Part shown: positions 51,387 through 60,776 of the stretch, one piece after another
How positions within the stretch are numbered: the first letter of the stretch is position 1
Layout of the letters: the number at the start of each line of letters is the position of its first letter
Virus record (IMG/VR): IMGVR_UViG_3300029305_002015
Span: 1-64,000 of that record
Reading direction: 5' to 3' (one strand)
Origin: a virus
Lineage: Duplodnaviria; Caudoviricetes
Length of the DNA stretch: 64,000 nt
The notes under the pieces: generated by a model
Database searches by the model: none
What the model saw: the letters and a program-made list of their open reading frames with translations, nothing else
Told to the model about the DNA's origin: nothing
Position numbers and translations under genes: made by a program

Positions 51387-51869
51387 ATGGCTGATAATTC
51401 TCAGATTAAACAACATGTAAGTCTTGAGGAGCGTAATAGATGGGATAAGCTCGTTGAAGACTTTGCGAATCACCTTGGTTCAGGTGGTACTAATAACCAT
51501 GCTATGGCAAATGGTACTGTTCCTGGTTTTAGCCAGAATAACTATACCACTACAGAGAAGAATAAACTTGCAGGCATTCAGGAAGGTGCATTGAATAACC
51601 CTCACCCTGCAACTCACCCTTATACTATGATCACAGGTCTTAGTACTGTTGCTCATACTGGTAGCTATACTGACCTGCTTAACATTCCTAAAACCTTTAT
51701 TGCAGGTGGCGGTAATGCTGATACTGTTGGTGGTATCAGATTCACTGTTGGACCTACTTCACCTGGTTCTCCTGTAAATAATAAAGATGTTTGGTTTGAT
51801 ACCGCTACCAAGCTTGTTAAAGTATATACTGGTAATACCTGGGTACCTTTTAACGCAGTATATGCATAA
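51387..51869 (+). CDS. Short tail-fibre-like protein (160 aa)
   Basis: HVSLEERNRWD, YTTTEKNKLAGI, HPATHP, VAHTGSYTDL, GGNADTVGG fibre motifs. Confidence 0.7.
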   Translation: MADNSQIKQHVSLEERNRWDKLVEDFANHLGSGGTNNHAMANGTVPGFSQNNYTTTEKNKLAGIQEGALNNPHPATHPYTMITGLSTVAHTGSYTDLLNIPKTFIAGGGNADTVGGIRFTVGPTSPGSPVNNKDVWFDTATKLVKVYTGNTWVPFNAVYA

Positions 51870-51972: not shown

Positions 51973-53280
51973 ATGGCTGTTGCAGTTGGAAATGCTATTA
52001 ATGTGGCTGATATTGCTAATTTATTTAATAGCACAGTTATTGCTAACATTACAAGTGGAGCACATCATCTAAACAATCCTCCTATGGATGGTTCATATTT
52101 TTGTGTTCCATCTAATATGATGGATGACATTAATAATTTACCTACCCCTAGTTTTGGTGTTAGTGGTGGTAAAATTACTGCATCATCAATTGCTACCGCT
52201 CTTATTAATGTTACTCAAAACTTAACTAGAGTTGGTACATTCAGTTATGTACGTACATATCGTACACTTCGAGAAATTCGTAGTAGATATGATCCTCTAT
52301 TACAAAGTACATATAGAGGATATGGTGTTGGATATGTTATTACAAATACCAATACGGTTCGAGCTCAAAAGAATGGTAAAGTTATATTTACTAATAGCTA
52401 TGTTCGACAGCTTGGATCTACTACAGGTGCTACCGCATTAAATTATTCACCTGCTAGCTACTTTGTAGTTAGTGGTGCAACTATTACTGGATTAACCGCA
52501 ACCGGTCTTGCAGCAACATCTATTGTAGTACCTGCTGCTATCAATGGTGTTACCATCACAGCCATTGGCAGTAATGCATTTAGAGGAAGTGTGGCAAGAA
52601 CGATTGAAATTCCTTCTAACATTACAAGTATTGGTAATTCTGCATTCCAGGCTTGTACAGCTCTAACAACGTTAACAATCTATGGTTCTTCTACATCTAT
52701 AGGTCAGTATGCATTCTATCAGTGTACAGCATTAACTACAGTAACATTCTATGGCACCATATCTAGTATTGGTATGTATGCATTCAGACTTTGTAGTGCA
52801 TTGACTGATGTTAATTTCTATTGTAATATTCAGACCATTGGTCAATATTCGTTCTACCAGTGTAGTGCAATTAAATACATTAGATTGCCAAGCTCTGTAA
52901 CAACGATTGGTACATATGCGTTTTATCTGGCTAATGCTATTACTACAGTATACTATGAAGGATCTCAAACTAACTGGAATGCATTATTGATCCAAGCTCA
53001 AAATGGTAATATTACAACTTGTACAAAGAGTTATAATTTTACTATTCCTCAGCCTCCTCAAACAACTACTGCTGGTGCAAATGTAAGTCATACAGTTGTT
53101 GCAAACAATCCGATTACTGTTGCTGCATTAAATGCTTTATGTTCTGCATGTTTACTGGCATGGCAGCGCACATCTAAATATCATTATAGCTATACAAATG
53201 CTACATGTCATAATGACTGTCATAGTAGTTGTCATTATGATTGTCATAATGACTGTCATAGTGACTGTTATAGTGATTAA
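51973..53280 (+). CDS. Tail-module protein with BspA-type LRR and C-terminal (C-[HY]-x-[DS])6 tail; putative radical SAM substrate
   Basis: SIGxYAFxxC LRRs; ends CHNDCHSSCHYDCHNDCHSDCYSD-stop; upstream of three radical SAM genes. Confidence 0.75.
   Translation: MAVAVGNAINVADIANLFNSTVIANITSGAHHLNNPPMDGSYFCVPSNMMDDINNLPTPSFGVSGGKITASSIATALINVTQNLTRVGTFSYVRTYRTLREIRSRYDPLLQSTYRGYGVGYVITNTNTVRAQKNGKVIFTNSYVRQLGSTTGATALNYSPASYFVVSGATITGLTATGLAATSIVVPAAINGVTITAIGSNAFRGSVARTIEIPSNITSIGNSAFQACTALTTLTIYGSSTSIGQYAFYQCTALTTVTFYGTISSIGMYAFRLCSALTDVNFYCNIQTIGQYSFYQCSAIKYIRLPSSVTTIGTYAFYLANAITTVYYEGSQTNWNALLIQAQNGNITTCTKSYNFTIPQPPQTTTAGANVSHTVVANNPITVAALNALCSACLLAWQRTSKYHYSYTNATCHNDCHSSCHYDCHNDCHSDCYSD
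53206..53277 (+). repeat. 12-bp tandem repeat, six copies (TGT-YAT-N6)
   Basis: tgtcataatgac tgtcatagtagt tgtcattatgat tgtcataatgac tgtcatagtgac tgttatagtgat. Confidence 0.95.
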
Positions 53281-53303: not shown

Positions 53304-54053
53304 GTGAAATATCTCACATTACCATTGGATATTGGAGTTATTGAAAATTTTAATCAAGAAGATATAATGATTGATATGTCAGATTTACAATTCCCCTGTA
53401 AACCTGAATTAAAAATAAGATCTGCATTTATCTTCATTCGGAATGTTGATTTAAATATGAATTTGGATTTTTCTAAATGCTCCTTTAAAATGAAGGAAGA
53501 ATTCTTATTAATGTATCTAACAGGGAATATTGGTGTAAATATTCCCTGTATACGTGATACATGGATTGATATTCTTCTATATAGATATAATAAGGACAAT
53601 TTACTTATTGGAATCATGGATTCAAAAGAGATAGAGAAATTCAGTCTGAAACATAATGATCTAATTACAGAAGTATATACATTGATTGCATCTCTACCTG
53701 TAATGGTCATATATCAATATTCTAAATCTCCTGCAACATATGCCGAATTAATAAAATTTGATGGAGAATTTGAAGAGTCTGATTATGATAAAATCAATTT
53801 CAGTAATTTTTCAAGACTTACTGAAAGTAGAAGATTTGGAGGAGTAATGATTGATGTTGATAAATACCCACAGAAATTTTATAAACATTATTTTGCTGGG
53901 AATGATCAAATATCAATGGCTAGGTTAAATGAGAATCTTCCTTTGATGAATCTTCTAAATATCTTCTTTTCTCCTAAAGATACTCAAGAACGCTTTATTA
54001 GCGGATTAAATGATTTACTAACTACGGAGGAGGTAAGTGAAAATAATGAGTGA
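53304..54053 (+). CDS. Hypothetical protein in the radical SAM cluster (249 aa)
   Basis: GTG start after AAGGAGG, 23 bp after the CHxD gene. Confidence 0.75.
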   Translation: MKYLTLPLDIGVIENFNQEDIMIDMSDLQFPCKPELKIRSAFIFIRNVDLNMNLDFSKCSFKMKEEFLLMYLTGNIGVNIPCIRDTWIDILLYRYNKDNLLIGIMDSKEIEKFSLKHNDLITEVYTLIASLPVMVIYQYSKSPATYAELIKFDGEFEESDYDKINFSNFSRLTESRRFGGVMIDVDKYPQKFYKHYFAGNDQISMARLNENLPLMNLLNIFFSPKDTQERFISGLNDLLTTEEVSENNE

Positions 54054-55308
54054 CCATATGTACAATGAACTACAATTGAAAGTTCAACTTCCTCAAATGA
54101 CAATGGATAATTATTTTCTAAGTAAAAATGATTTATCAATATCTCGTCATTTGAGTACTAAGCAAGTTATAAGAATTCCTGCTGCTGAAGTAAAGGAGAT
54201 TCTAGCTGAAAAAGAATATGACATGCCTGATTTCTTGGTCATGTTTGAAGATGGTTTAGCTGAATCTGATGTATCTAAGTATGCTGATATGAGCGATGGT
54301 TATCAAATGTCTGAATACTTCAGTAAAGCAGATTTTTATATTCCTACATTTGATTACTTTAGGGCTGTTAAGTTTGGTGGAATTGATTGTATCATGAATA
54401 TTTATAATGGTAGACAATGTAAGATTCCATTTAAACAGGTTCTAAGTAAGATTAAGATTGAAACTCCTGAGGAACAGGAAGCACATACTGATGTATATCC
54501 TTTCCCAATGATCACAAAGGATACTATTAATTATACGAAGTTCAAGAATGTATCTTATTGTGATAATCTTCGTACTCAGACATATATGTATAGATTTCCT
54601 GCTCTATGTTTAAATCTCCCATATAAGTATTATAAATCTCAGAATATCCCTGAGAATATTTACTTCTGGGATGTTGATACTAAAGAGTTAGGATTTGCTG
54701 GACATTCTACAGATGAAATCTTTGAATGGTTTGAGGATATTTGTAAGCATGGTTTACAGAAACCCTTATATTTCCAAATCTCTCAAGGACAAATTGTTTC
54801 TGCTACAGATGAGGATTACATTAAACTATTAATTGCTCAATATCTGAAGATTCCTACAATTCCAGTTGTAGCATATATGTTAAATAACTCTGCTAAGAGT
54901 AGTATGCTTATTAGTATGAGACCTTGTGATATTATAGGAGCTCGCACAGGTAGCTTAAATACTGATAAAGAAACTTTAACTCTTATCAATGAAATCTGTT
55001 CTCCATATTTTATCTTCTTTAATTCAAACCTTACTGATTCTTTATCAGTAAATGAAAATGTGCATGAGGATATGGAAAATAAAGATGGCCCAGTTTATAA
55101 TCAAATATTTGATTCAACTCATAATGATTTAGATTATAATGAATCATATCTATTACAGAATGATGATAGTAATATATTTGATGATAATCTTGGTGATCCT
55201 ACTCCTTCTTATATTCTCCATGAAAATATGAGGAATGATATTCAGAAACAAATCAATGAAGATATAGAAAGATCATTAAAGCAATTGGAATTGTTATCAG
55301 GTCAGTGA
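54037..55308 (+). CDS. Hypothetical protein in the radical SAM cluster, possible degenerate ParB/Srx-like segment
   Basis: Overlaps the upstream stop, GGAGG SD (start 54037 or 54046); DICKHGLQKPLYF...LLIAQYLKIPTIPV loosely ParB-N-like. Confidence 0.6.
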   Translation: MKIMSDHMYNELQLKVQLPQMTMDNYFLSKNDLSISRHLSTKQVIRIPAAEVKEILAEKEYDMPDFLVMFEDGLAESDVSKYADMSDGYQMSEYFSKADFYIPTFDYFRAVKFGGIDCIMNIYNGRQCKIPFKQVLSKIKIETPEEQEAHTDVYPFPMITKDTINYTKFKNVSYCDNLRTQTYMYRFPALCLNLPYKYYKSQNIPENIYFWDVDTKELGFAGHSTDEIFEWFEDICKHGLQKPLYFQISQGQIVSATDEDYIKLLIAQYLKIPTIPVVAYMLNNSAKSSMLISMRPCDIIGARTGSLNTDKETLTLINEICSPYFIFFNSNLTDSLSVNENVHEDMENKDGPVYNQIFDSTHNDLDYNESYLLQNDDSNIFDDNLGDPTPSYILHENMRNDIQKQINEDIERSLKQLELLSGQ

Positions 55309-55316
55309 TAAATACA

Positions 55317-55366
55317 ATGATATAGATTATATGGCATTGCGCCATATAATCTATATCATCTTTTTT
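55317..55366 (+). terminator. Intrinsic terminator
   Basis: ATGATATAGATTATATGGC-attgc-GCCATATAATCTATATCAT plus T tract. Confidence 0.8.
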
Positions 55367-55409: not shown

Positions 55410-56390
55410 ATGGAGTTAATTATTAAACCTACTGGTAGATGTAACTTTGCATGTACATTCTGTTCAGCAGGAGATATGACTATTCAACATCCTAAGGATG
55501 ATAAAGTTCCTGAACAAATTAAAGACTTAATCAATCGAATGAACCCTACAAGATTAATTATTACTGGTGGGGAACCTTTAATGGTATCACCTGAATATTA
55601 TTATGAACTTCATGAAATGGTACCTGATGCTTATATTAGTCCTACGACTAATCTTAAAGATTTCTATCTAAATCCTGAAAAATGGGCTCCTCTATTTAAT
55701 GAGGAATGGTTTAAAATTACTACATCATTTAACTATGGTGATAGTAGACGATGGGATAAAGATACAGTATTTACAGAAGAAATGTTTATTAAGGTAATGG
55801 ATAAATTCAGGGAGTATGTACCTAATAAATCTCTTCCAATGTTTATTGCTGTAATTGATGAAAGTAATGCTGATAAAGTTATGGATCATATTTTATTAGC
55901 AAAGCGGCTTGATTCTATGTGTAAACTTAATAGAGCTATTGGTGTTGGATATCAAGAAGTTGGTTATCAGCGTTATAAAATTATGAAAGATTATCTTGAT
56001 ATTATTGATGCTGGCTTAGAAAAATATGAATGGAATTGTGCTAATAGAGCAAATGGTACATGTCCATACAATATTCATCATACATGTGAATCTACAATTA
56101 GGTGTGTATATGTAGCTTGTGATGGTACATTACATGTAGGAACATGTGATGAAAGAGTATCTATGGGATATGAAATTCCTGAAGATAAACTAATCAATCC
56201 TTCATATATTCCTAAATATGAGCATATTAACCCATCAGATTATATTAGTCCCAAATGTGCATATTGTGAGTTATTCAATTTATGCAATGCATGTGGAACT
56301 AATAGAATTGAAGCTAAACTGGATCCAAATTATTGTGATGAAATGAAGAAGCTTGAGTCAAGAATAATTGAATCTGGTTGGGCATTATAA
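55410..56390 (+). CDS. Radical SAM enzyme with Cys-rich SPASM-like C-terminus
   Basis: CNFACTFC (CX3CX2C), TGGEP, C-terminal CAYCELFNLCNAC...C. Confidence 0.9.
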   Translation: MELIIKPTGRCNFACTFCSAGDMTIQHPKDDKVPEQIKDLINRMNPTRLIITGGEPLMVSPEYYYELHEMVPDAYISPTTNLKDFYLNPEKWAPLFNEEWFKITTSFNYGDSRRWDKDTVFTEEMFIKVMDKFREYVPNKSLPMFIAVIDESNADKVMDHILLAKRLDSMCKLNRAIGVGYQEVGYQRYKIMKDYLDIIDAGLEKYEWNCANRANGTCPYNIHHTCESTIRCVYVACDGTLHVGTCDERVSMGYEIPEDKLINPSYIPKYEHINPSDYISPKCAYCELFNLCNACGTNRIEAKLDPNYCDEMKKLESRIIESGWAL

Positions 56391-56402
56391 AGGAGGATAT
56401 AA

Positions 56403-57224
56403 ATGTATAAGCGTAAAACCATCTATGCATTATTAACTAGAAAATGTAATCTCTCCTGTCCACATTGTGATGTCCATAATATTGTAGATGATTTTGATAA
56501 AGAGAAGTTTCTTAGTAGGTTAATTCAAACAGAAGGAAAGATCATTCTGTTTGGAGGTGAGCCTACTTTATATCAGGATCGTCTATTTGATATTGTAAAT
56601 GAATGTAAAAAAGCTGGTAGAAAAATTGGATCTATATCTACCAATCTGATGATTCTTAATGACCAATTATTAGCTCTATTTAAAGAAATTGGTAGTGTTG
56701 CAACGTCATGGAATCCTAATAGATTTACACCCATTCAATATGATATATGGTATAAGAATTGTATCAATCTTGCTATAACAGTGAATGTTAAACCAACCCT
56801 AATGATCACATTAGATAATGATCTAATGGAGATGGGTGTTGATGAATTTCTAAAAGTTGTTGATAATTGGGATCCAAATGTATTTAAGAAGATTAAAATG
56901 GAACATCTCAATTGTATTGATAACACTCCAGAATATTTTGATCGAGTAGATGATTTCCTATGTGAATTATATTCTAAATGGAGATCTGATATTTATAATG
57001 ATATCAATGGACGGATCAAGAATTGGTGGTTTGATTGTACAGGAGTATGTACAATTGAGCCTAATGGAAATATTATTCCTAAATGTCCACATGATGTAAA
57101 TCCAACTATTCCTGAAGAGTGTTATTCATGTGAACGAGCGGATGTATGTAGACCTTGTGTATTACAACATCATTGCTCATTCCCAAAAAAGTTTGCTAAA
57201 TTAGTTTCTGATGGAGGTAATTAG
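56403..57224 (+). CDS. Radical SAM enzyme with short SPASM/twitch-like C-terminus
   Basis: CNLSCPHC, FGGEP, C-terminal CYSCERADVCRPC...C. Confidence 0.9.
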   Translation: MYKRKTIYALLTRKCNLSCPHCDVHNIVDDFDKEKFLSRLIQTEGKIILFGGEPTLYQDRLFDIVNECKKAGRKIGSISTNLMILNDQLLALFKEIGSVATSWNPNRFTPIQYDIWYKNCINLAITVNVKPTLMITLDNDLMEMGVDEFLKVVDNWDPNVFKKIKMEHLNCIDNTPEYFDRVDDFLCELYSKWRSDIYNDINGRIKNWWFDCTGVCTIEPNGNIIPKCPHDVNPTIPEECYSCERADVCRPCVLQHHCSFPKKFAKLVSDGGN

Positions 57225-57225
57225 A

Positions 57226-58368
57226 GTGACATTTAAAAACTTTCCAACATATATGACAGAAGATGAATTTATCCAATTCTGGAAGGAATACTTCGAAGAA
57301 CATCAGATGAAGGAGAAAGAAGATGTAAACATTTATGTACACTATCCATGGTGTAGAAGTGTATGTAAATTCTGTATCTTTGGTGCTTTAAAACTAGAAG
57401 AGAATCGTCATCTGGTGGAACCGTATGAACGAGCAACTTTAAGAATGATGGAACGAATGGCTCCAATTATAGAAACTCAAAAGGTTTCTGAGTTGTTCTT
57501 TGGTGGTGGTACCCCTAGTTTATGGACTATGGAATCATTAAAAAGAATGACTGAAATCTTACCAAATTATGATAAGATTGGGATTCGTCGTACAGAGATA
57601 CATCCATCTGATATGACTGATGAGCGAATGGAATTTATGATTAATACGATGAAGTTTCATCATATCAGTATTGGAGTTCAGTCATTTGATAAAGCATCTT
57701 GTAAAGGTCAGAACAGAATTCATATTTCTCCAGAACAACTTGCTCATGTTGTTAAGACGTTTCAGAAAGCAGGTTTATATGTAAACTGCGACCTAGTAGC
57801 ATTATTCAATGGACCTGATGAGAAGAACTGGGATATCTTTAAAGAAGATCTACGAATAATGGAAACAGTTGTCCATCCTGATGCAATGACTGTATCTCCA
57901 AATTATCGAGAAGATTATTATAATAATTCTATTAAATTCCGTAAGATCATCAAAGAGTTCAATGATACTCAAACTGGTGGGTATCATTTGAATTATGGAG
58001 ATCAGGCATTTTCTCTTGATAAGATGGATATTATTCGTCATATGGATAGACCTTATATTTTCCTTACTGATGAATATGCAAGATTTGTATTAGATCATCC
58101 AGTACTTAGTGAAACTAAAACTAAGGAAGAAATGGATAATCGAAATATGATTGCTTTTGGTGGTATTGATGGTGAAGGTGCATTTAGTAGAACTGCTGAA
58201 TATCACTACATCAATGGTATATACATCCCTCAAGACGATGAATTCCATTATAGATGTAAAAAGAAATCAATGTTTGAAAGATTGAATATCAAGAATGATA
58301 ATGATTTCTATAATAATGAAATTCATATTGGTCAGGGATTTGTACTTCCACCTCCAACCCGTGAATAA
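57226..58368 (+). CDS. HemN/HemW-like (class C) radical SAM enzyme
   Basis: YVHYPWCRSVCKFC, FFGGGTPSL, ISIGVQSF, VNCDL; GTG 57226 after GGAGGT (track start 57211). Confidence 0.85.
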   Translation: MTFKNFPTYMTEDEFIQFWKEYFEEHQMKEKEDVNIYVHYPWCRSVCKFCIFGALKLEENRHLVEPYERATLRMMERMAPIIETQKVSELFFGGGTPSLWTMESLKRMTEILPNYDKIGIRRTEIHPSDMTDERMEFMINTMKFHHISIGVQSFDKASCKGQNRIHISPEQLAHVVKTFQKAGLYVNCDLVALFNGPDEKNWDIFKEDLRIMETVVHPDAMTVSPNYREDYYNNSIKFRKIIKEFNDTQTGGYHLNYGDQAFSLDKMDIIRHMDRPYIFLTDEYARFVLDHPVLSETKTKEEMDNRNMIAFGGIDGEGAFSRTAEYHYINGIYIPQDDEFHYRCKKKSMFERLNIKNDNDFYNNEIHIGQGFVLPPPTRE

Positions 58369-58405: not shown

Positions 58406-58612
58406 ATGGAATTTACTGAAAGAGATCAGCAAGCTATTAAAGAATATCTTGGATATATCCGTGCTGGTTCTAAACGTATCTATGAAATTGATGATAGTAG
58501 ATATCGTGATGAAATTGCAAAGTTGATGCAAGAGGATGTAGATGCAGGTAGATCTACTGGTCATGAACGTAGAGCATTACGTGAATATAATGAACGCTAT
58601 AGAAAGGATTAA
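58406..58612 (+). CDS. Small hypothetical protein (68 aa)
   Basis: AAGGAGGT SD. Confidence 0.7.
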   Translation: MEFTERDQQAIKEYLGYIRAGSKRIYEIDDSRYRDEIAKLMQEDVDAGRSTGHERRALREYNERYRKD

Positions 58613-58623
58613 GGTGAACTAAT

Positions 58624-58830
58624 ATGGCTAAGAAACATGTTATCAAATATTGGGCTAGATTACTTCAGAAAGGAACTTTTAAAGAATCCGAAGTTCCTGA
58701 AGATATCAGAGCTGAAGTAGTAGCAACATCCTTATCTCTTCCTCCTCGTGAAAGTATTTTCGATGATACGAAACCTGTTGTAGAGGAAGATGCTGAATCT
58801 ACTAACACTAGTGAACCTACAGAAGAATAA
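58624..58830 (+). CDS. CD1375-like small phage protein
   Basis: YWARLLQKGTFKESEVPEDIRAEV resembles the CD1375 pattern found near Firmicute phage tail modules. Confidence 0.5.
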   Translation: MAKKHVIKYWARLLQKGTFKESEVPEDIRAEVVATSLSLPPRESIFDDTKPVVEEDAESTNTSEPTEE

Positions 58831-58833
58831 AAG

Positions 58834-58866
58834 AATAAGAGGGAGCACAATGCTCCCTCTTATTTT
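58834..58866. terminator. Bidirectional intrinsic terminator
   Basis: AATAAGAGGGAGCA-caa-TGCTCCCTCTTATT between convergent genes. Confidence 0.85.
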
Positions 58867-58871
58867 ACTTA

Positions 58872-60776
58872 TTATACATAAGCTTCAACGGTTTCATTAT
58901 GAGATTCATTGACATCACTGTCAAGGAAGATACACTGATTACCAGAGATCAGAATCTTGATAAGTTCAGATGCTACAGACAGAACCATTGCATCAGTCTC
59001 AGCAGAAGTAATGATATTCTCATTATACTCAAGAGTCTCAAGATCGAAAGTTTTATTCTGCTGGATAGAACTATTAATGATCTCTGCACCCTTATCAATT
59101 GCAGCCTGTTCAAGAGCAGCTACTGCTTCAGGTTCATTGGAAGTATACTGCCAACGATCAACGAGTTTGATCATACCCTGACCAGTTGCACCATGTAGAA
59201 CCTGAGCATATACCATTCGAACTGCATCATAGATCATATCCAGAATACCATATCTGAGACGGATATCATTAGTAAGGCTCTTCATGTATTCATTCGGATT
59301 CTCGGTCTTCTCAGGAAGGATATCTCTCATTGCATCAATACATGCACGAGCAATTGTGATCTGACAACCAGGAACAACACCATACTTGATTGCAGAACGT
59401 ACACACTTTATTACATCTTCAACGGAGTCCCAAATAATCTGTTTCTGAAGATCACTATCTGCACCAATGTAATAGATGAAGTTCTTCATCTCTAACTGAA
59501 GTACACGAGCATTGGCTTCATAGATCTTGGAAGAATAAGACTGCTTCTCTGCATCAGTAGTAGCAGTAATCTGCTCAAGATCAGTACGAGCACGGCGAAG
59601 TGCATCCTGATATTTCTCATCAGATTCAATATCCTCAACACGGAAGATAGAACCTGTATTACAAGACAGAAGAGCTTCTGCTGCCTTACCAATTACTCGA
59701 TGGAACTCATAACTGTTATTATTGAGAACATCTTCAACCCATGCGTCAACAGTAGCACGATCAAACTTTTCAATCATACCAGTATACAGTTCCTGAGTAA
59801 TAACTTTAGCTCTGAGAATAGTAGCCAAGTCAACAAGCTGATTAGGCTCAAGTTTACCCATTGCATACTGAGCCATAATGATATTAATTCCACCCTTATT
59901 TCTCATCTCATAAGTGAGATACTGATCAACAACAGTTTCACACATATAAGCATCATAGAAAGGAGCAAGGATAAGAAGTTTACTACCCATGGCTCTCATA
60001 CATTCATTGATAGGAATAATGAACTTGTTAAACATATCAGTTTCAACTTTGTGATCAAAGATCATTACAAATACATTCTTCTCAGTAGCACTAAGATCCT
60101 GATTACGAACAAAAGCATCACTGATAAGATTGGCAGGGAAATCAAATCCATTGATTGCAGATACATAAGACTTATTAGTAGGAGAATCCTTCATTTTAAT
60201 GGAAGGAGATTTAGCATTCTTATAAGTCTCAGCAATAGCATGAGCAATCTCTTCATTACCATTAGACGTTACATATGCAATATTATAAATGGAATCATAA
60301 TCAGTAGGATCAATAGGTCTAGCAGCACTATGAACTCTATTCTTCAGATCCTCAATAATTTCATCCCAAGCTCTATTGAACTGACGAGGAAGCCTATATA
60401 AAGTGTTAAAAGCAGCCTTACGGCTAATAACACCATTACCACCATTATATTGCTTGAATAAAGCATTGGTAAGGACGATAGCAGTAGTAGTACCATCACC
60501 TACGGTATTATTCATACGAATACAAGGTGCTTTGATAAGATTATATATCATCCTCTTATAACGGTTATGGAAACGATACTTCATTAAGATGGCATGTCCA
60601 TCTTTCGTAGCCTCAGTCATCATACCATCAAGAATGGTAGCAGATGAACCTAGAGGTCCTAACGACTTGCTTAAATTATCGGAGATAACTCCAAATACCT
60701 CATTGATCAATCCCTCGAATTCTTCTTGAGGAATAATGTTGCAATGATTCTGATTAGAATAGTCTAAAAATCCCAT
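58872..60776 (-). CDS. Phage-encoded GroEL-like chaperonin
   Basis: SLGPLG, TKDG, GDGTTT ATP-binding motif, VEDVIKCVRSAIKYGVVPG. Confidence 0.88.
   Translation of the reverse strand: MGFLDYSNQNHCNIIPQEEFEGLINEVFGVISDNLSKSLGPLGSSATILDGMMTEATKDGHAILMKYRFHNRYKRMIYNLIKAPCIRMNNTVGDGTTTAIVLTNALFKQYNGGNGVISRKAAFNTLYRLPRQFNRAWDEIIEDLKNRVHSAARPIDPTDYDSIYNIAYVTSNGNEEIAHAIAETYKNAKSPSIKMKDSPTNKSYVSAINGFDFPANLISDAFVRNQDLSATEKNVFVMIFDHKVETDMFNKFIIPINECMRAMGSKLLILAPFYDAYMCETVVDQYLTYEMRNKGGINIIMAQYAMGKLEPNQLVDLATILRAKVITQELYTGMIEKFDRATVDAWVEDVLNNNSYEFHRVIGKAAEALLSCNTGSIFRVEDIESDEKYQDALRRARTDLEQITATTDAEKQSYSSKIYEANARVLQLEMKNFIYYIGADSDLQKQIIWDSVEDVIKCVRSAIKYGVVPGCQITIARACIDAMRDILPEKTENPNEYMKSLTNDIRLRYGILDMIYDAVRMVYAQVLHGATGQGMIKLVDRWQYTSNEPEAVAALEQAAIDKGAEIINSSIQQNKTFDLETLEYNENIITSAETDAMVLSVASELIKILISGNQCIFLDSDVNESHNETVEAYV

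Follow-up and report, generated by a model that had tools for sequence, protein, structure and literature searches.

The last 24 residues of a protein encoded in a 64,000-nucleotide stretch of tailed-phage DNA (Caudoviricetes; positions 1 to 64,000 of IMG/VR record IMGVR_UViG_3300029305_002015, hereafter the window) consist of six Cys-His units. This tail is most likely a substrate, in the manner of a peptide made by ribosomes and modified after its translation (RiPP), of two radical S-adenosylmethionine (SAM)/SPASM enzymes encoded nearby; judged from sequence comparisons, this is probably the best explanation of the locus as a whole. The window is contained in a 100,955-base viral record (estimated completeness 37%), a fragment of a faecal jumbo phage.

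Six 12-bp units of the form TGT-CAT/TAT-NNN-NNN occupy positions 53206-53277 and are followed by TAA at 53278-53280. In the open reading frame (ORF) 51973-53280 they are preceded by ...TNAT and translated into CHND-CHSS-CHYD-CHND-CHSD-CYSD, the C-terminus of the 435-amino-acid protein P0001. Every unit is C-[H/Y]-x-[D/S], exactly as described in the initial annotation of this DNA: position 3 of units 1-6 is N, S, Y, N, S and S, Tyr is found at position 2 only in unit 6, and Ser at position 4 only in unit 2. Tandem Repeats Finder reported a period of 12 (5.9 copies, 79% matches, score 79) and a higher-scoring period of 36 (2.0 copies, 83% matches, score 104). Units 1 and 4 have the same DNA sequence, units 2/5 (CHSS/CHSD) and 3/6 (CHYD/CYSD) form pairs, and the array contains a 21-bp perfect direct repeat with its copies 36 bp apart. 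Because the period of 36 outscores that of 12 and unit 1 equals unit 4 in DNA, we read the array as a duplicated three-unit block:

53206-53241, plus strand: repeat block 1, CHND-CHSS-CHYD (DNA, translation, Tandem Repeats Finder).
53242-53277, plus strand: repeat block 2, CHND-CHSD-CYSD, a copy of block 1 (36-bp period, 83% matches, score 104), with the stop codon at 53278-53280.

The array was the sole (C-H-x-x)x3 site of the 100,955-base record, with 3 overlapping forward matches, 0 reverse matches and 0 in controls. Sequencing-run contigs covering it all came from animal faecal metagenomes, had a depth of 3-5 and broke within the repeat; no RNA data set was listed among the runs. Scanning viral_contigs with the pattern (C-H-x-x)x3-C returned mostly simple-sequence repeats in non-coding frames. 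The GC-rich Ralstonia phage RSF1 encodes the motif with quite different codons (TGC/CAC/TCG/AGC), hence conservation of the motif acts at the protein level. On these comparisons the array is more than a chance DNA repeat: six units are also present in P0002, a protein 43% identical to P0001, and the motif recurs with other codons.

Using a profile of the family, we found 871 cluster representatives (50% identity) at an expect value (E) of <= 1e-3, 654 of them at <= 1e-10, among 1.84 billion sequences. The tails of the best 150 of the 871 representatives, with 452 units, were surveyed; the invariance of Cys in this set was partly imposed by the search rule. Three units were present in 135 representatives, two in 7, four in 4, five in 1 and six in 2. 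Position 2 was His in 450 units and Tyr in 2, while Phe and Trp, allowed by the search rule, were never seen. Position 3 was free (S, G, A, N, T, D, Y and others; Gly in 78/452). Position 4 was Ser in 362 units, Asn in 66, Ala in 15, Asp in 6, Gln in 3 and Gly in 0. An R-x-R-R end, sometimes with Gly before it, closed 130 of the 150 tails. Another 54 tails, derived from loci, agreed with this survey, and about 85-90% of the family ends in R-x-R-R. In cultured-phage clusters, a six-frame scan found one CH-tail protein each, directly after a radical SAM gene and ending in CHSS-CHSS-CHGS-RGRR, CHSS-CHAS-CHNS-RSRR or CHTS-CHTS-CHSA-RGRR.

The Cys and aromatic registers noted earlier in the window are thus kept in homologous tails. 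The proposed Asp/Ser register at position 4 held in part: the position is restricted and never Gly, but Asp is not the conserved acceptor. Across the tails compared, the family keeps a Cys-His-x-Ser/Asn register, and only the window lineage has the Asp-rich version (Asp about 1% outside it). Because position 4 always has a beta-carbon and never a large side chain, a C-beta cross-link would fit better than a C-alpha cross-link. Rare tails depart from the common form. P0136 has three CH blocks with N-V-V between them, P0241 and P0259 have six contiguous units followed by RARR, and P0261 has a single CH unit after a poly-Pro spacer; among these and P0183, P0210 and P0278 there are also rare ends G-D-G-P-G-x-G-G-G-V/R in place of R-x-R-R.

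The two SPASM-like enzymes postulated in the initial annotation are real: both P0121 and P0122 carry CX3CX2C and SPASM cysteines. Together with a partner protein, they are encoded downstream of P0001:

53304-54053, plus strand: P0124, 249 amino acids, R_073 family (hidden Markov model (HMM) of 84 R_073 proteins, E 2.6e-20).
55410-56390, plus strand: radical SAM/SPASM enzyme 1, P0121, 326 amino acids, rSAM079 orthologue (CX3CX2C at 11-18, Cys-rich SPASM-like C-terminus, Pfam Radical_SAM).
56403-57224, plus strand: radical SAM/SPASM enzyme 2, P0122, 273 amino acids, a short rSAM070 relative (CX3CX2C at 15-22, seven invariant SPASM cysteines).

P0124 had no match in Pfam or NCBIfam. Enzyme 1 is 31-34% identical over its full length to enzymes of RSF1, DT01 and Atu_ph07. 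Its homologues occur in Ralstonia phages RSF1/RSL2, Burkholderia FLC phages and S13, Pseudomonas phage pPa_SNUABM_DT01, Agrobacterium phage Atu_ph07 and Sinorhizobium phage Phosso, and in each of these cultured jumbo phages the homologue sits in a cluster of several radical SAM genes. For P0122 the closest cassette enzyme is rSAM070, whose gene is normally the immediate upstream neighbour of the tail gene in the canonical cassette (below). Both the short type and a full-length rSAM070 are present in G001 (IMGVR_UViG_3300045988_133206), a complete 270-kb relative that bridges the window and canonical forms.

Curated models of known maturases were matched weakly. Almost the whole of RSF1 rSAM070 could be aligned to the PapB, DynA and anSME models; PapB was its top NCBIfam match (near full-length, E 8.9e-14, 51.5 bits; cut-off 340), and the same model gave P0122 23 bits. 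The YhhB and AmcB models scored the window enzymes at 15-22 bits (cut-offs 425-445); YhhB scored RSF1 rSAM070 at 46 bits, and XyeB and GrrM matched RSF1 enzymes only, at 18-23 bits (cut-offs 310-450). HxsB and HxsC were among the weak best matches of cassette enzymes (25-31 bits, cut-offs 268-370): HxsC scored the window enzymes at 28.9 and 27.1 bits (cut-off 267.9) and HxsB scored RSF1 rSAM075 at 25.4 (cut-off 370). The TIGR04115 model gave only a 25.4-bit N-terminal match to RSF1 rSAM070 (cut-off 350) and none to the window enzymes. With PADLOC there were only weak N-terminal pVip-like matches to the radical SAM core. Because all scores are far below the curated cut-offs, we claim no membership in a maturase family, and the type of chemistry is a guess.

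A 21-kb locus with a relative of the enzyme pair (L128, IMGVR_UViG_3300021426_000113) seems to read TAG as a sense codon. Its long ORFs total 1,262 amino acids in the standard code and 7,569 with TAG read as Gln, and with table 11 its enzyme genes are broken up.

Linkage between tail and enzymes was assessed in loci selected by enzyme 1 (80 of 282 relatives) and in loci selected by the tail (80 of 202 relatives). A tail protein was encoded within 10 kb in 58/80 enzyme-1-selected loci; the remainder were mostly short contigs, or had a marine order in which a row of paralogues sets the tail gene about 10 kb apart. Radical SAM genes of the cassette were present in 80/80 tail-selected loci. Among the 54 tail-selected loci outside the first set, 46 contained at least two radical SAM genes, 41 at least three, and 49 the order rSAM070-TAIL-R_073. 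As a control, 80 unrelated viral loci (717 kb) were compared with the cassette proteins, and 0/80 matched any of them.

The canonical cassette comprises a cupin, rSAM070, TAIL, R_073, rSAM075, rSAM079, rSAM081, R_074 paralogues, R_085 and 2-oxoglutarate (2OG) oxygenases. Canonical cassettes (L152, L181, L187, L196, L197 and others; RSF1 ORF072-074) contain rows of 2-5 paralogous 'R_074'/'R_072' proteins of 340-370 amino acids with no family match. Such rows separate the tail gene from the enzymes in the marine order, and none is found in the window lineage.

The gene content of the cassette co-varied with the end of the tail. We compared unique loci with good flanks (n=71):

Tails with R-x-R-R, n=67: rSAM070-type 67, rSAM079 67, R_073 67, rSAM075 67, rSAM081 66, R_085 66, cupin 59.
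Tails without R-x-R-R, n=4: rSAM070-type 4, rSAM079 4, R_073 4, rSAM075 0, rSAM081 0, R_085 0, cupin 0.

The enzyme 1 type was therefore present in 71/71 tail loci with adequate flanks (67 with R-x-R-R and 4 without). The tails lacking R-x-R-R form two lineages, the CHGS[L/I] type and the window type; P0001 itself has no R-x-R-R end and stops at CYSD, and its set, P0122, P0121 and P0124, lies within 4 kb downstream of the tail gene. The RSF1 cupin matched JmjC_2, a family that includes arginine hydroxylases. These patterns are suggestive of two modules, a repeat module that is always present and stands alone in the window, and an R-x-R-R module tied to that end; the split is suggestive only, because loss of R-x-R-R is known from two independent lineages. 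As to the earlier proposal that the two enzymes act on the units, linkage (80/80 versus 0/80) and the retention of only these two enzyme types beside tails without R-x-R-R speak for it, whereas neither a triceptide nor a PapB cut-off was reached.

One point that the initial annotation of the repeat did not mention concerns the nature of the putative substrate: the repeat is the C-terminus of a folded, LRR-containing (leucine-rich repeat) protein, 435 amino acids long and related to a virion protein, and not a short precursor peptide:

51973-53280, plus strand: tail-bearing P0001, 435 amino acids, with an N-domain (~2-135), a BspA-type LRR insert, a C-terminal helix and strand, and the repeat tail (translation, Pfam, HMM, AlphaFold2 (AF2)).
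52558-52932, plus strand: BspA-type LRR region, an insertion relative to the canonical family of 130-250 amino acids (Pfam PF13306; not in 28 aligned canonical members).
53119-53205, plus strand: conserved helix and strand (residues 383-411) leading into the tail, a candidate recognition segment (predicted helix 383-400, predicted strand 405-413; aligns to the canonical family).

Pfam LRR_5 (PF13306) matched residues 196-320 (E 2.2e-35). In the AF2 model of P0001 the LRR was confident, and tail residues 414-435 had a predicted local distance difference test score (pLDDT) < 50. An HMM of 52 canonical tail proteins matched P0001 twice, at residues 2-135 (E 1.5e-10) and ~370-421. Because the canonical profile matches both ends, P0001 is a member of the phrog_35144-type family with an LRR inserted between the N-domain and the C-terminal helix. 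Canonical members matched phrog_35144 (annotated as 'unknown function', no Pfam); P0001 itself did not reach this family in hmmscan, LRR phrogs dominating its matches. The sole full-length homologue of P0001 among 5.8 billion proteins was P0002, from a complete 292-kb viral contig with the gene order of the window. Its tail has six units, CHTV-CHNN-CYRD-CHDD-CHDD-CYSD; all other homologues in that collection share the LRR part only. Searches against phages gave no match, whether by megablast with the window cluster or by tblastn with the P0001 N-domain or a marine tail protein as query, and a single-protein scan of viral_contigs gave none.

The model of a canonical family member showed a compact alpha/beta domain (pLDDT 90.7, predicted template modelling score 0.84) with the tail protruding (pLDDT ~58). 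For this canonical body, Foldseek against the PDB gave no match at E <= 0.001, the best Z in VIA-align wide was only 3.7, and the ESM Atlas returned no usable match. BFVD returned only uncharacterised relatives, including Atu_ph07 gp170 and three gut myovirus proteins. The latter (A0A8S5USJ8, A0A8S5USJ7 and A0A8S5USV2; 504-660 amino acids) have the fold of the canonical body and all belong to one phage, Myoviridae sp. ctijX18; other gut phages may carry enlarged, domain-inserted versions, possibly several per genome.

A homologue of the tail protein has been detected in virions. Atu_ph07 gp170 (31.89 kDa) is listed in the virion proteome with 8 peptides and 35% coverage, and was found in gel fragments 1-9, most abundantly in fragment 1, the top one (PMC6102473 Table S5). 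In the same gel, proteins of ~30 kDa have their maximum in fragment 8, and the 117-kDa sheath has its maximum in fragment 2 (PMC6102473). Absent from the virion list are gp164-169 and gp171, the enzymes encoded next to gp170 (PMC6102473 Table S5). Going by gp170, the family is a particle protein, with an apparent mass in the gel far higher than that of the monomer. For P0001, the position of its gene after tail-fibre genes is consistent with a particle protein; the virion detection is that of the homologue only.

In the mechanism that we propose, the six-unit stretch would be a flexible 'core' at the C-terminus of a phage particle protein, modified after translation by the SPASM enzymes encoded 2 kb downstream (55410-57224), and the conserved 249-amino-acid partner (53304-54053) would probably assist. 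The folded body, with the helix and strand before the tail, would play the part of a RiPP leader peptide. At position 4 (Ser, Asn, Asp or Ala, never Gly), the enzymes would abstract a hydrogen from C-beta, and this carbon would be joined to the Cys sulfur (ranthionine-type, PapB-like), to a His/Tyr carbon (triceptide-type), or one each. The outcome would be a row of small rings or, alternatively, links between subunits. A single known chemistry seems less likely than two different steps, or than one link combined with metal binding by the other ligand, because Cys and His hardly vary and no fewer than two SPASM enzymes are found in every case. The six units would have arisen from an ancestral three-unit block by duplication, and loss of R-x-R-R would have accompanied loss of two other radical SAM enzymes, R_085 and the cupin. 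As the LRR (adhesin-like) protein that bears the tail at its C-terminus is encoded immediately behind the tail-fibre genes, the modified tail may be a surface-exposed tip, chemically stapled or metal-holding.

More broadly, we give about even chances to the view that this is a widespread modular phage pathway (at least 871 clusters) in which SPASM enzymes cross-link a Cys-His tail of the virion. The C-H-x-S units would be served by one enzyme pair, and the R-x-R-R end by another set made up of two further radical SAM enzymes, the JmjC-like cupin and R_085. The window phage would be a minimal form that occurs in nature, with the first module alone, a doubled core and an LRR adhesin body, and the pathway would be the first case in which radical SAM enzymes tailor a structural protein of a virus.

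Several points weigh against enzymatic modification of the tail. Cys and His are the classical metal ligands, and their conservation alone also fits plain metal binding. The co-variation rests on just two independent lineages without R-x-R-R, and much of the gene linkage comes from related phages, though gene order differs in the window, G001 and the marine type. Curated peptide-maturase models score the window enzymes at 15-33 bits and RSF1 rSAM070 at 51.5, with cut-offs of 340-450. The loading buffer used for Atu_ph07 contained SDS and was combined with heat, and no reductant is listed, so that disulfides could explain the high-mass species (PMC6102473).

The foremost alternative, which we consider unlikely though clearly ahead of the others, takes the tail to be a simple motif for metal binding or disulfide formation (Zn, Fe or Cu; maybe between fibre subunits) that requires no enzyme, the radical SAM enzymes acting elsewhere. 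Cys and His are indeed the two invariant positions, the tail is predicted to be disordered as a monomer, and gp170 was at high mass in a gel with no listed reductant. In the HxH motif of T4 gp37, a fibre tip holds metal through repeated His motifs. This alternative leaves unexplained why rSAM070 and R_073 flank the tail gene in 49/54 loci and why cassette radical SAM genes occur in 80/80 loci versus 0/80 controls. Nor does it account for the loss of exactly half the enzymes along with R-x-R-R, or for the exclusion of Gly and bulky residues at position 4, which is not a ligand position. G003, a complete sister genome, offers no other candidate substrate in its reduced six-gene module. Metal binding after modification would, moreover, be compatible with modification of the tail by the two enzymes.

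Oxidation of Cys in the manner of anSME, to formylglycine or another dehydro form whose reactive aldehydes then cross-link to partners, is improbable. The anSME model aligned end to end with RSF1 rSAM079 (E 2e-9) and rSAM070 (E 6e-11), and such aldehydes could account for a ladder of high-mass species. The sulfatase motif is C-x-(P/A)-x-R, and the last canonical unit, C-H-x-S-R, shares its Cys/Arg spacing. The anSME scores were 37-42 bits against a cut-off of 349, no better than those of PapB or DynA; the window tail contains no Arg, and the invariant His and the Gly-free position 4 would be left unexplained.

Still less probable is a sacrificial tail, whose residues would be excised into a small cofactor or metallophore in the style of PQQ or mycofactocin, the body serving as carrier. 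A C-terminal core beside several radical SAM enzymes, with oxygenases in the canonical cassette, would suit this idea. Against it, the carrier is a well-folded protein of 130-435 amino acids (pLDDT 90.7) that is found in purified virions, where the enzymes are not, and no protease or transporter is conserved in the module.

Of the earlier idea that the 12-bp unit could expand or contract, a changed copy number (2, 3, 4, 5 or 6) survives, but the expanding unit is the 36-bp three-unit block rather than 12 bp, and there is no sign of rapid change, since two phages with just 43% identity both retain six units. A contingency locus that slips often to vary the number of sites would fit the 21-bp perfect direct repeat 36 bp apart and the variation of copy number between lineages, yet it is scarcely credible with three units in 135/150 representatives, that shared retention of six, and units only 79% alike.

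Among described systems, the nearest to the one considered here, modification of the tail by two SPASM enzymes, is the HXS antiphage system, with a common logic and different proteins. In HXS, the His-Xaa-Ser repeats of HxsA are matured by HxsB/HxsC, with HxsD in addition, and a covalent change of +8 Da was located on one such unit, SHRSS (Li et al. 2026, PMC13128918). Both systems have a full-size protein with tandem H-x-S units, two radical SAM enzymes and a small or unknown partner. Unlike the virion-protein carrier of the phages, HxsA is a periplasmic defence effector of Pseudomonadota whose repeats are basic and internal and have no Cys register. P0001, P0124 and P0125 (a further neighbour, below) had no NCBIfam match to HxsA (TIGR03979) or HxsD (TIGR03976) at E <= 0.01.

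In triceptides, radical SAM/SPASM enzymes form cyclophanes from His-C2 to C-beta on H-x-x motifs (HaaB on HAA, YhhB on HNR and HtkB on HTK; PMC11499958). The pattern aromatic1-X2-X3 is found as [H/Y]-x-[D/S] in the six window units and as H-x-[S/N/A/D] family-wide, and position 4 always offers a beta-carbon. Triceptide precursors, in contrast, are short peptides without an obligatory Cys, and the cut-offs of cyclophane-synthase models were not reached by the enzymes described here. The ranthipeptide maturase PapB forms several Cys-X3-Asp thioether rings in freyrasin. The window resembles this system in its C-terminal row of Cys...Asp units beside a SPASM enzyme, and PapB is in the match list of enzyme 2. 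The spacing, however, is C-x-x-D instead of C-x3-D, the family acceptor is Ser or Asn, and the invariant His is not needed by a pure thioether system. The predicted peptide target of the CXXX-repeat family (TIGR04115) likewise has Cys every fourth residue, but the equivalog-level maturase model gave only 25.4 of 350 bits, with RSF1 rSAM070 alone; no paper on TIGR04115 was found in the open-access literature. Metal-holding HxH repeats occur in phage fibre and spike tips such as T4 gp37 and gp5.4-type spikes, which also have short repeated His-containing units at the end of a protein of the adsorption apparatus. The present tails differ in their C-H motif, predicted disorder as monomers, obligate enzyme neighbours and lack of a structural match to solved fibres. 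A literature search found no paper on the tail/radical SAM cassette; genome papers on carrier phages merely list radical SAM, cupin and 2OG genes.

Around P0001 and the two enzymes, the window contains the following further features:

51387-51869, plus strand: 160-amino-acid protein directly upstream of the P0001 gene (phrog_18608 match).
54037-55308, plus strand: P0125, 423 amino acids, lineage-restricted (homologues beside the tail module in G003, 55%, and G001, 30% over 138 amino acids).
55317-55359, plus strand: strong terminator-like hairpin between substrate and enzyme genes (19-20-pair stem, then CTTTTTT).
57211-58368, plus strand: P0123, 385 amino acids, HemN-like (class C-type) radical SAM protein (NCBIfam HemN/HemW/ChuW-like, E 1e-21 to 1e-18, all below cut-offs).
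58832-58866, no strand assigned: bidirectional terminator-like hairpin ending the enzyme operon (hairpin search).

Farther upstream of P0001 are fibre-like giants, a 1264-amino-acid protein with Pfam Phage_fiber_rpt and a 2580-amino-acid protein. Relatives of the 160-amino-acid protein are encoded directly upstream of the tail gene in G001 (40% identical) and G003 (80%). P0125 had no match in the family libraries searched (Pfam, NCBIfam, PHROGs and PADLOC). P0123 is present in G003, was not found in G001 by tblastn, and is not labelled in any canonical locus examined. Its start lies 14 bases ahead of the stop of enzyme 2 (57211-57224, overlapping frames), an arrangement that suggests translational coupling of the two genes. 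The enzymes are followed by two 68-amino-acid ORFs (58406-58830), which were dismissed as alternative precursors because they contain no Cys or repeat motif. Adjoining the operon is a gene for a diverged GroEL-like chaperonin of 634 amino acids (58872-60776, minus strand; phrog_5725, E 4e-67, far below the NCBIfam GroEL cut-offs); a GroEL-like gene adjoins the radical SAM operon in a sister genome too (L001, 16739-18646).

In G003 no further cassette gene was found anywhere in the genome. The order in G001 is a 161-amino-acid protein, a 210-amino-acid tail protein (CHSS-CYYD-CHGS-RGRR), a radical SAM/SPASM enzyme and a P0124-like protein. The cassette of G001 is scattered, with R_085-rSAM1-rSAM2 at 20-22 kb, the tail module and two radical SAM genes at 39-45.5 kb, and the full-length rSAM070 at 106.7 kb.

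As read from its genes, what the window adds to the family is an LRR-insert branch, a doubled Asp-rich core, a tail without R-x-R-R, a reduced cassette with a HemN-like enzyme, and co-variation of enzymes with parts of the tail. Because the cassette is reduced to six genes and the core is doubled, the window phage could serve as a compact reconstitution system, and setting it beside the cassettes that have R-x-R-R yields a prediction of the part of the tail on which each enzyme acts. The known settings of radical SAM/SPASM maturases are small secreted peptides and, since 2026, a single defence effector of bacteria. Phages seem to apply the same maturation logic to a particle protein of their own, in hundreds of lineages from soil, marine and gut environments. 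If so, the enzymes would represent a new protein-modifying family that accepts a folded protein as 'leader', and a stapled or metal-holding tail would be a new virion chemistry beside the isopeptide chainmail of the HK97 type.

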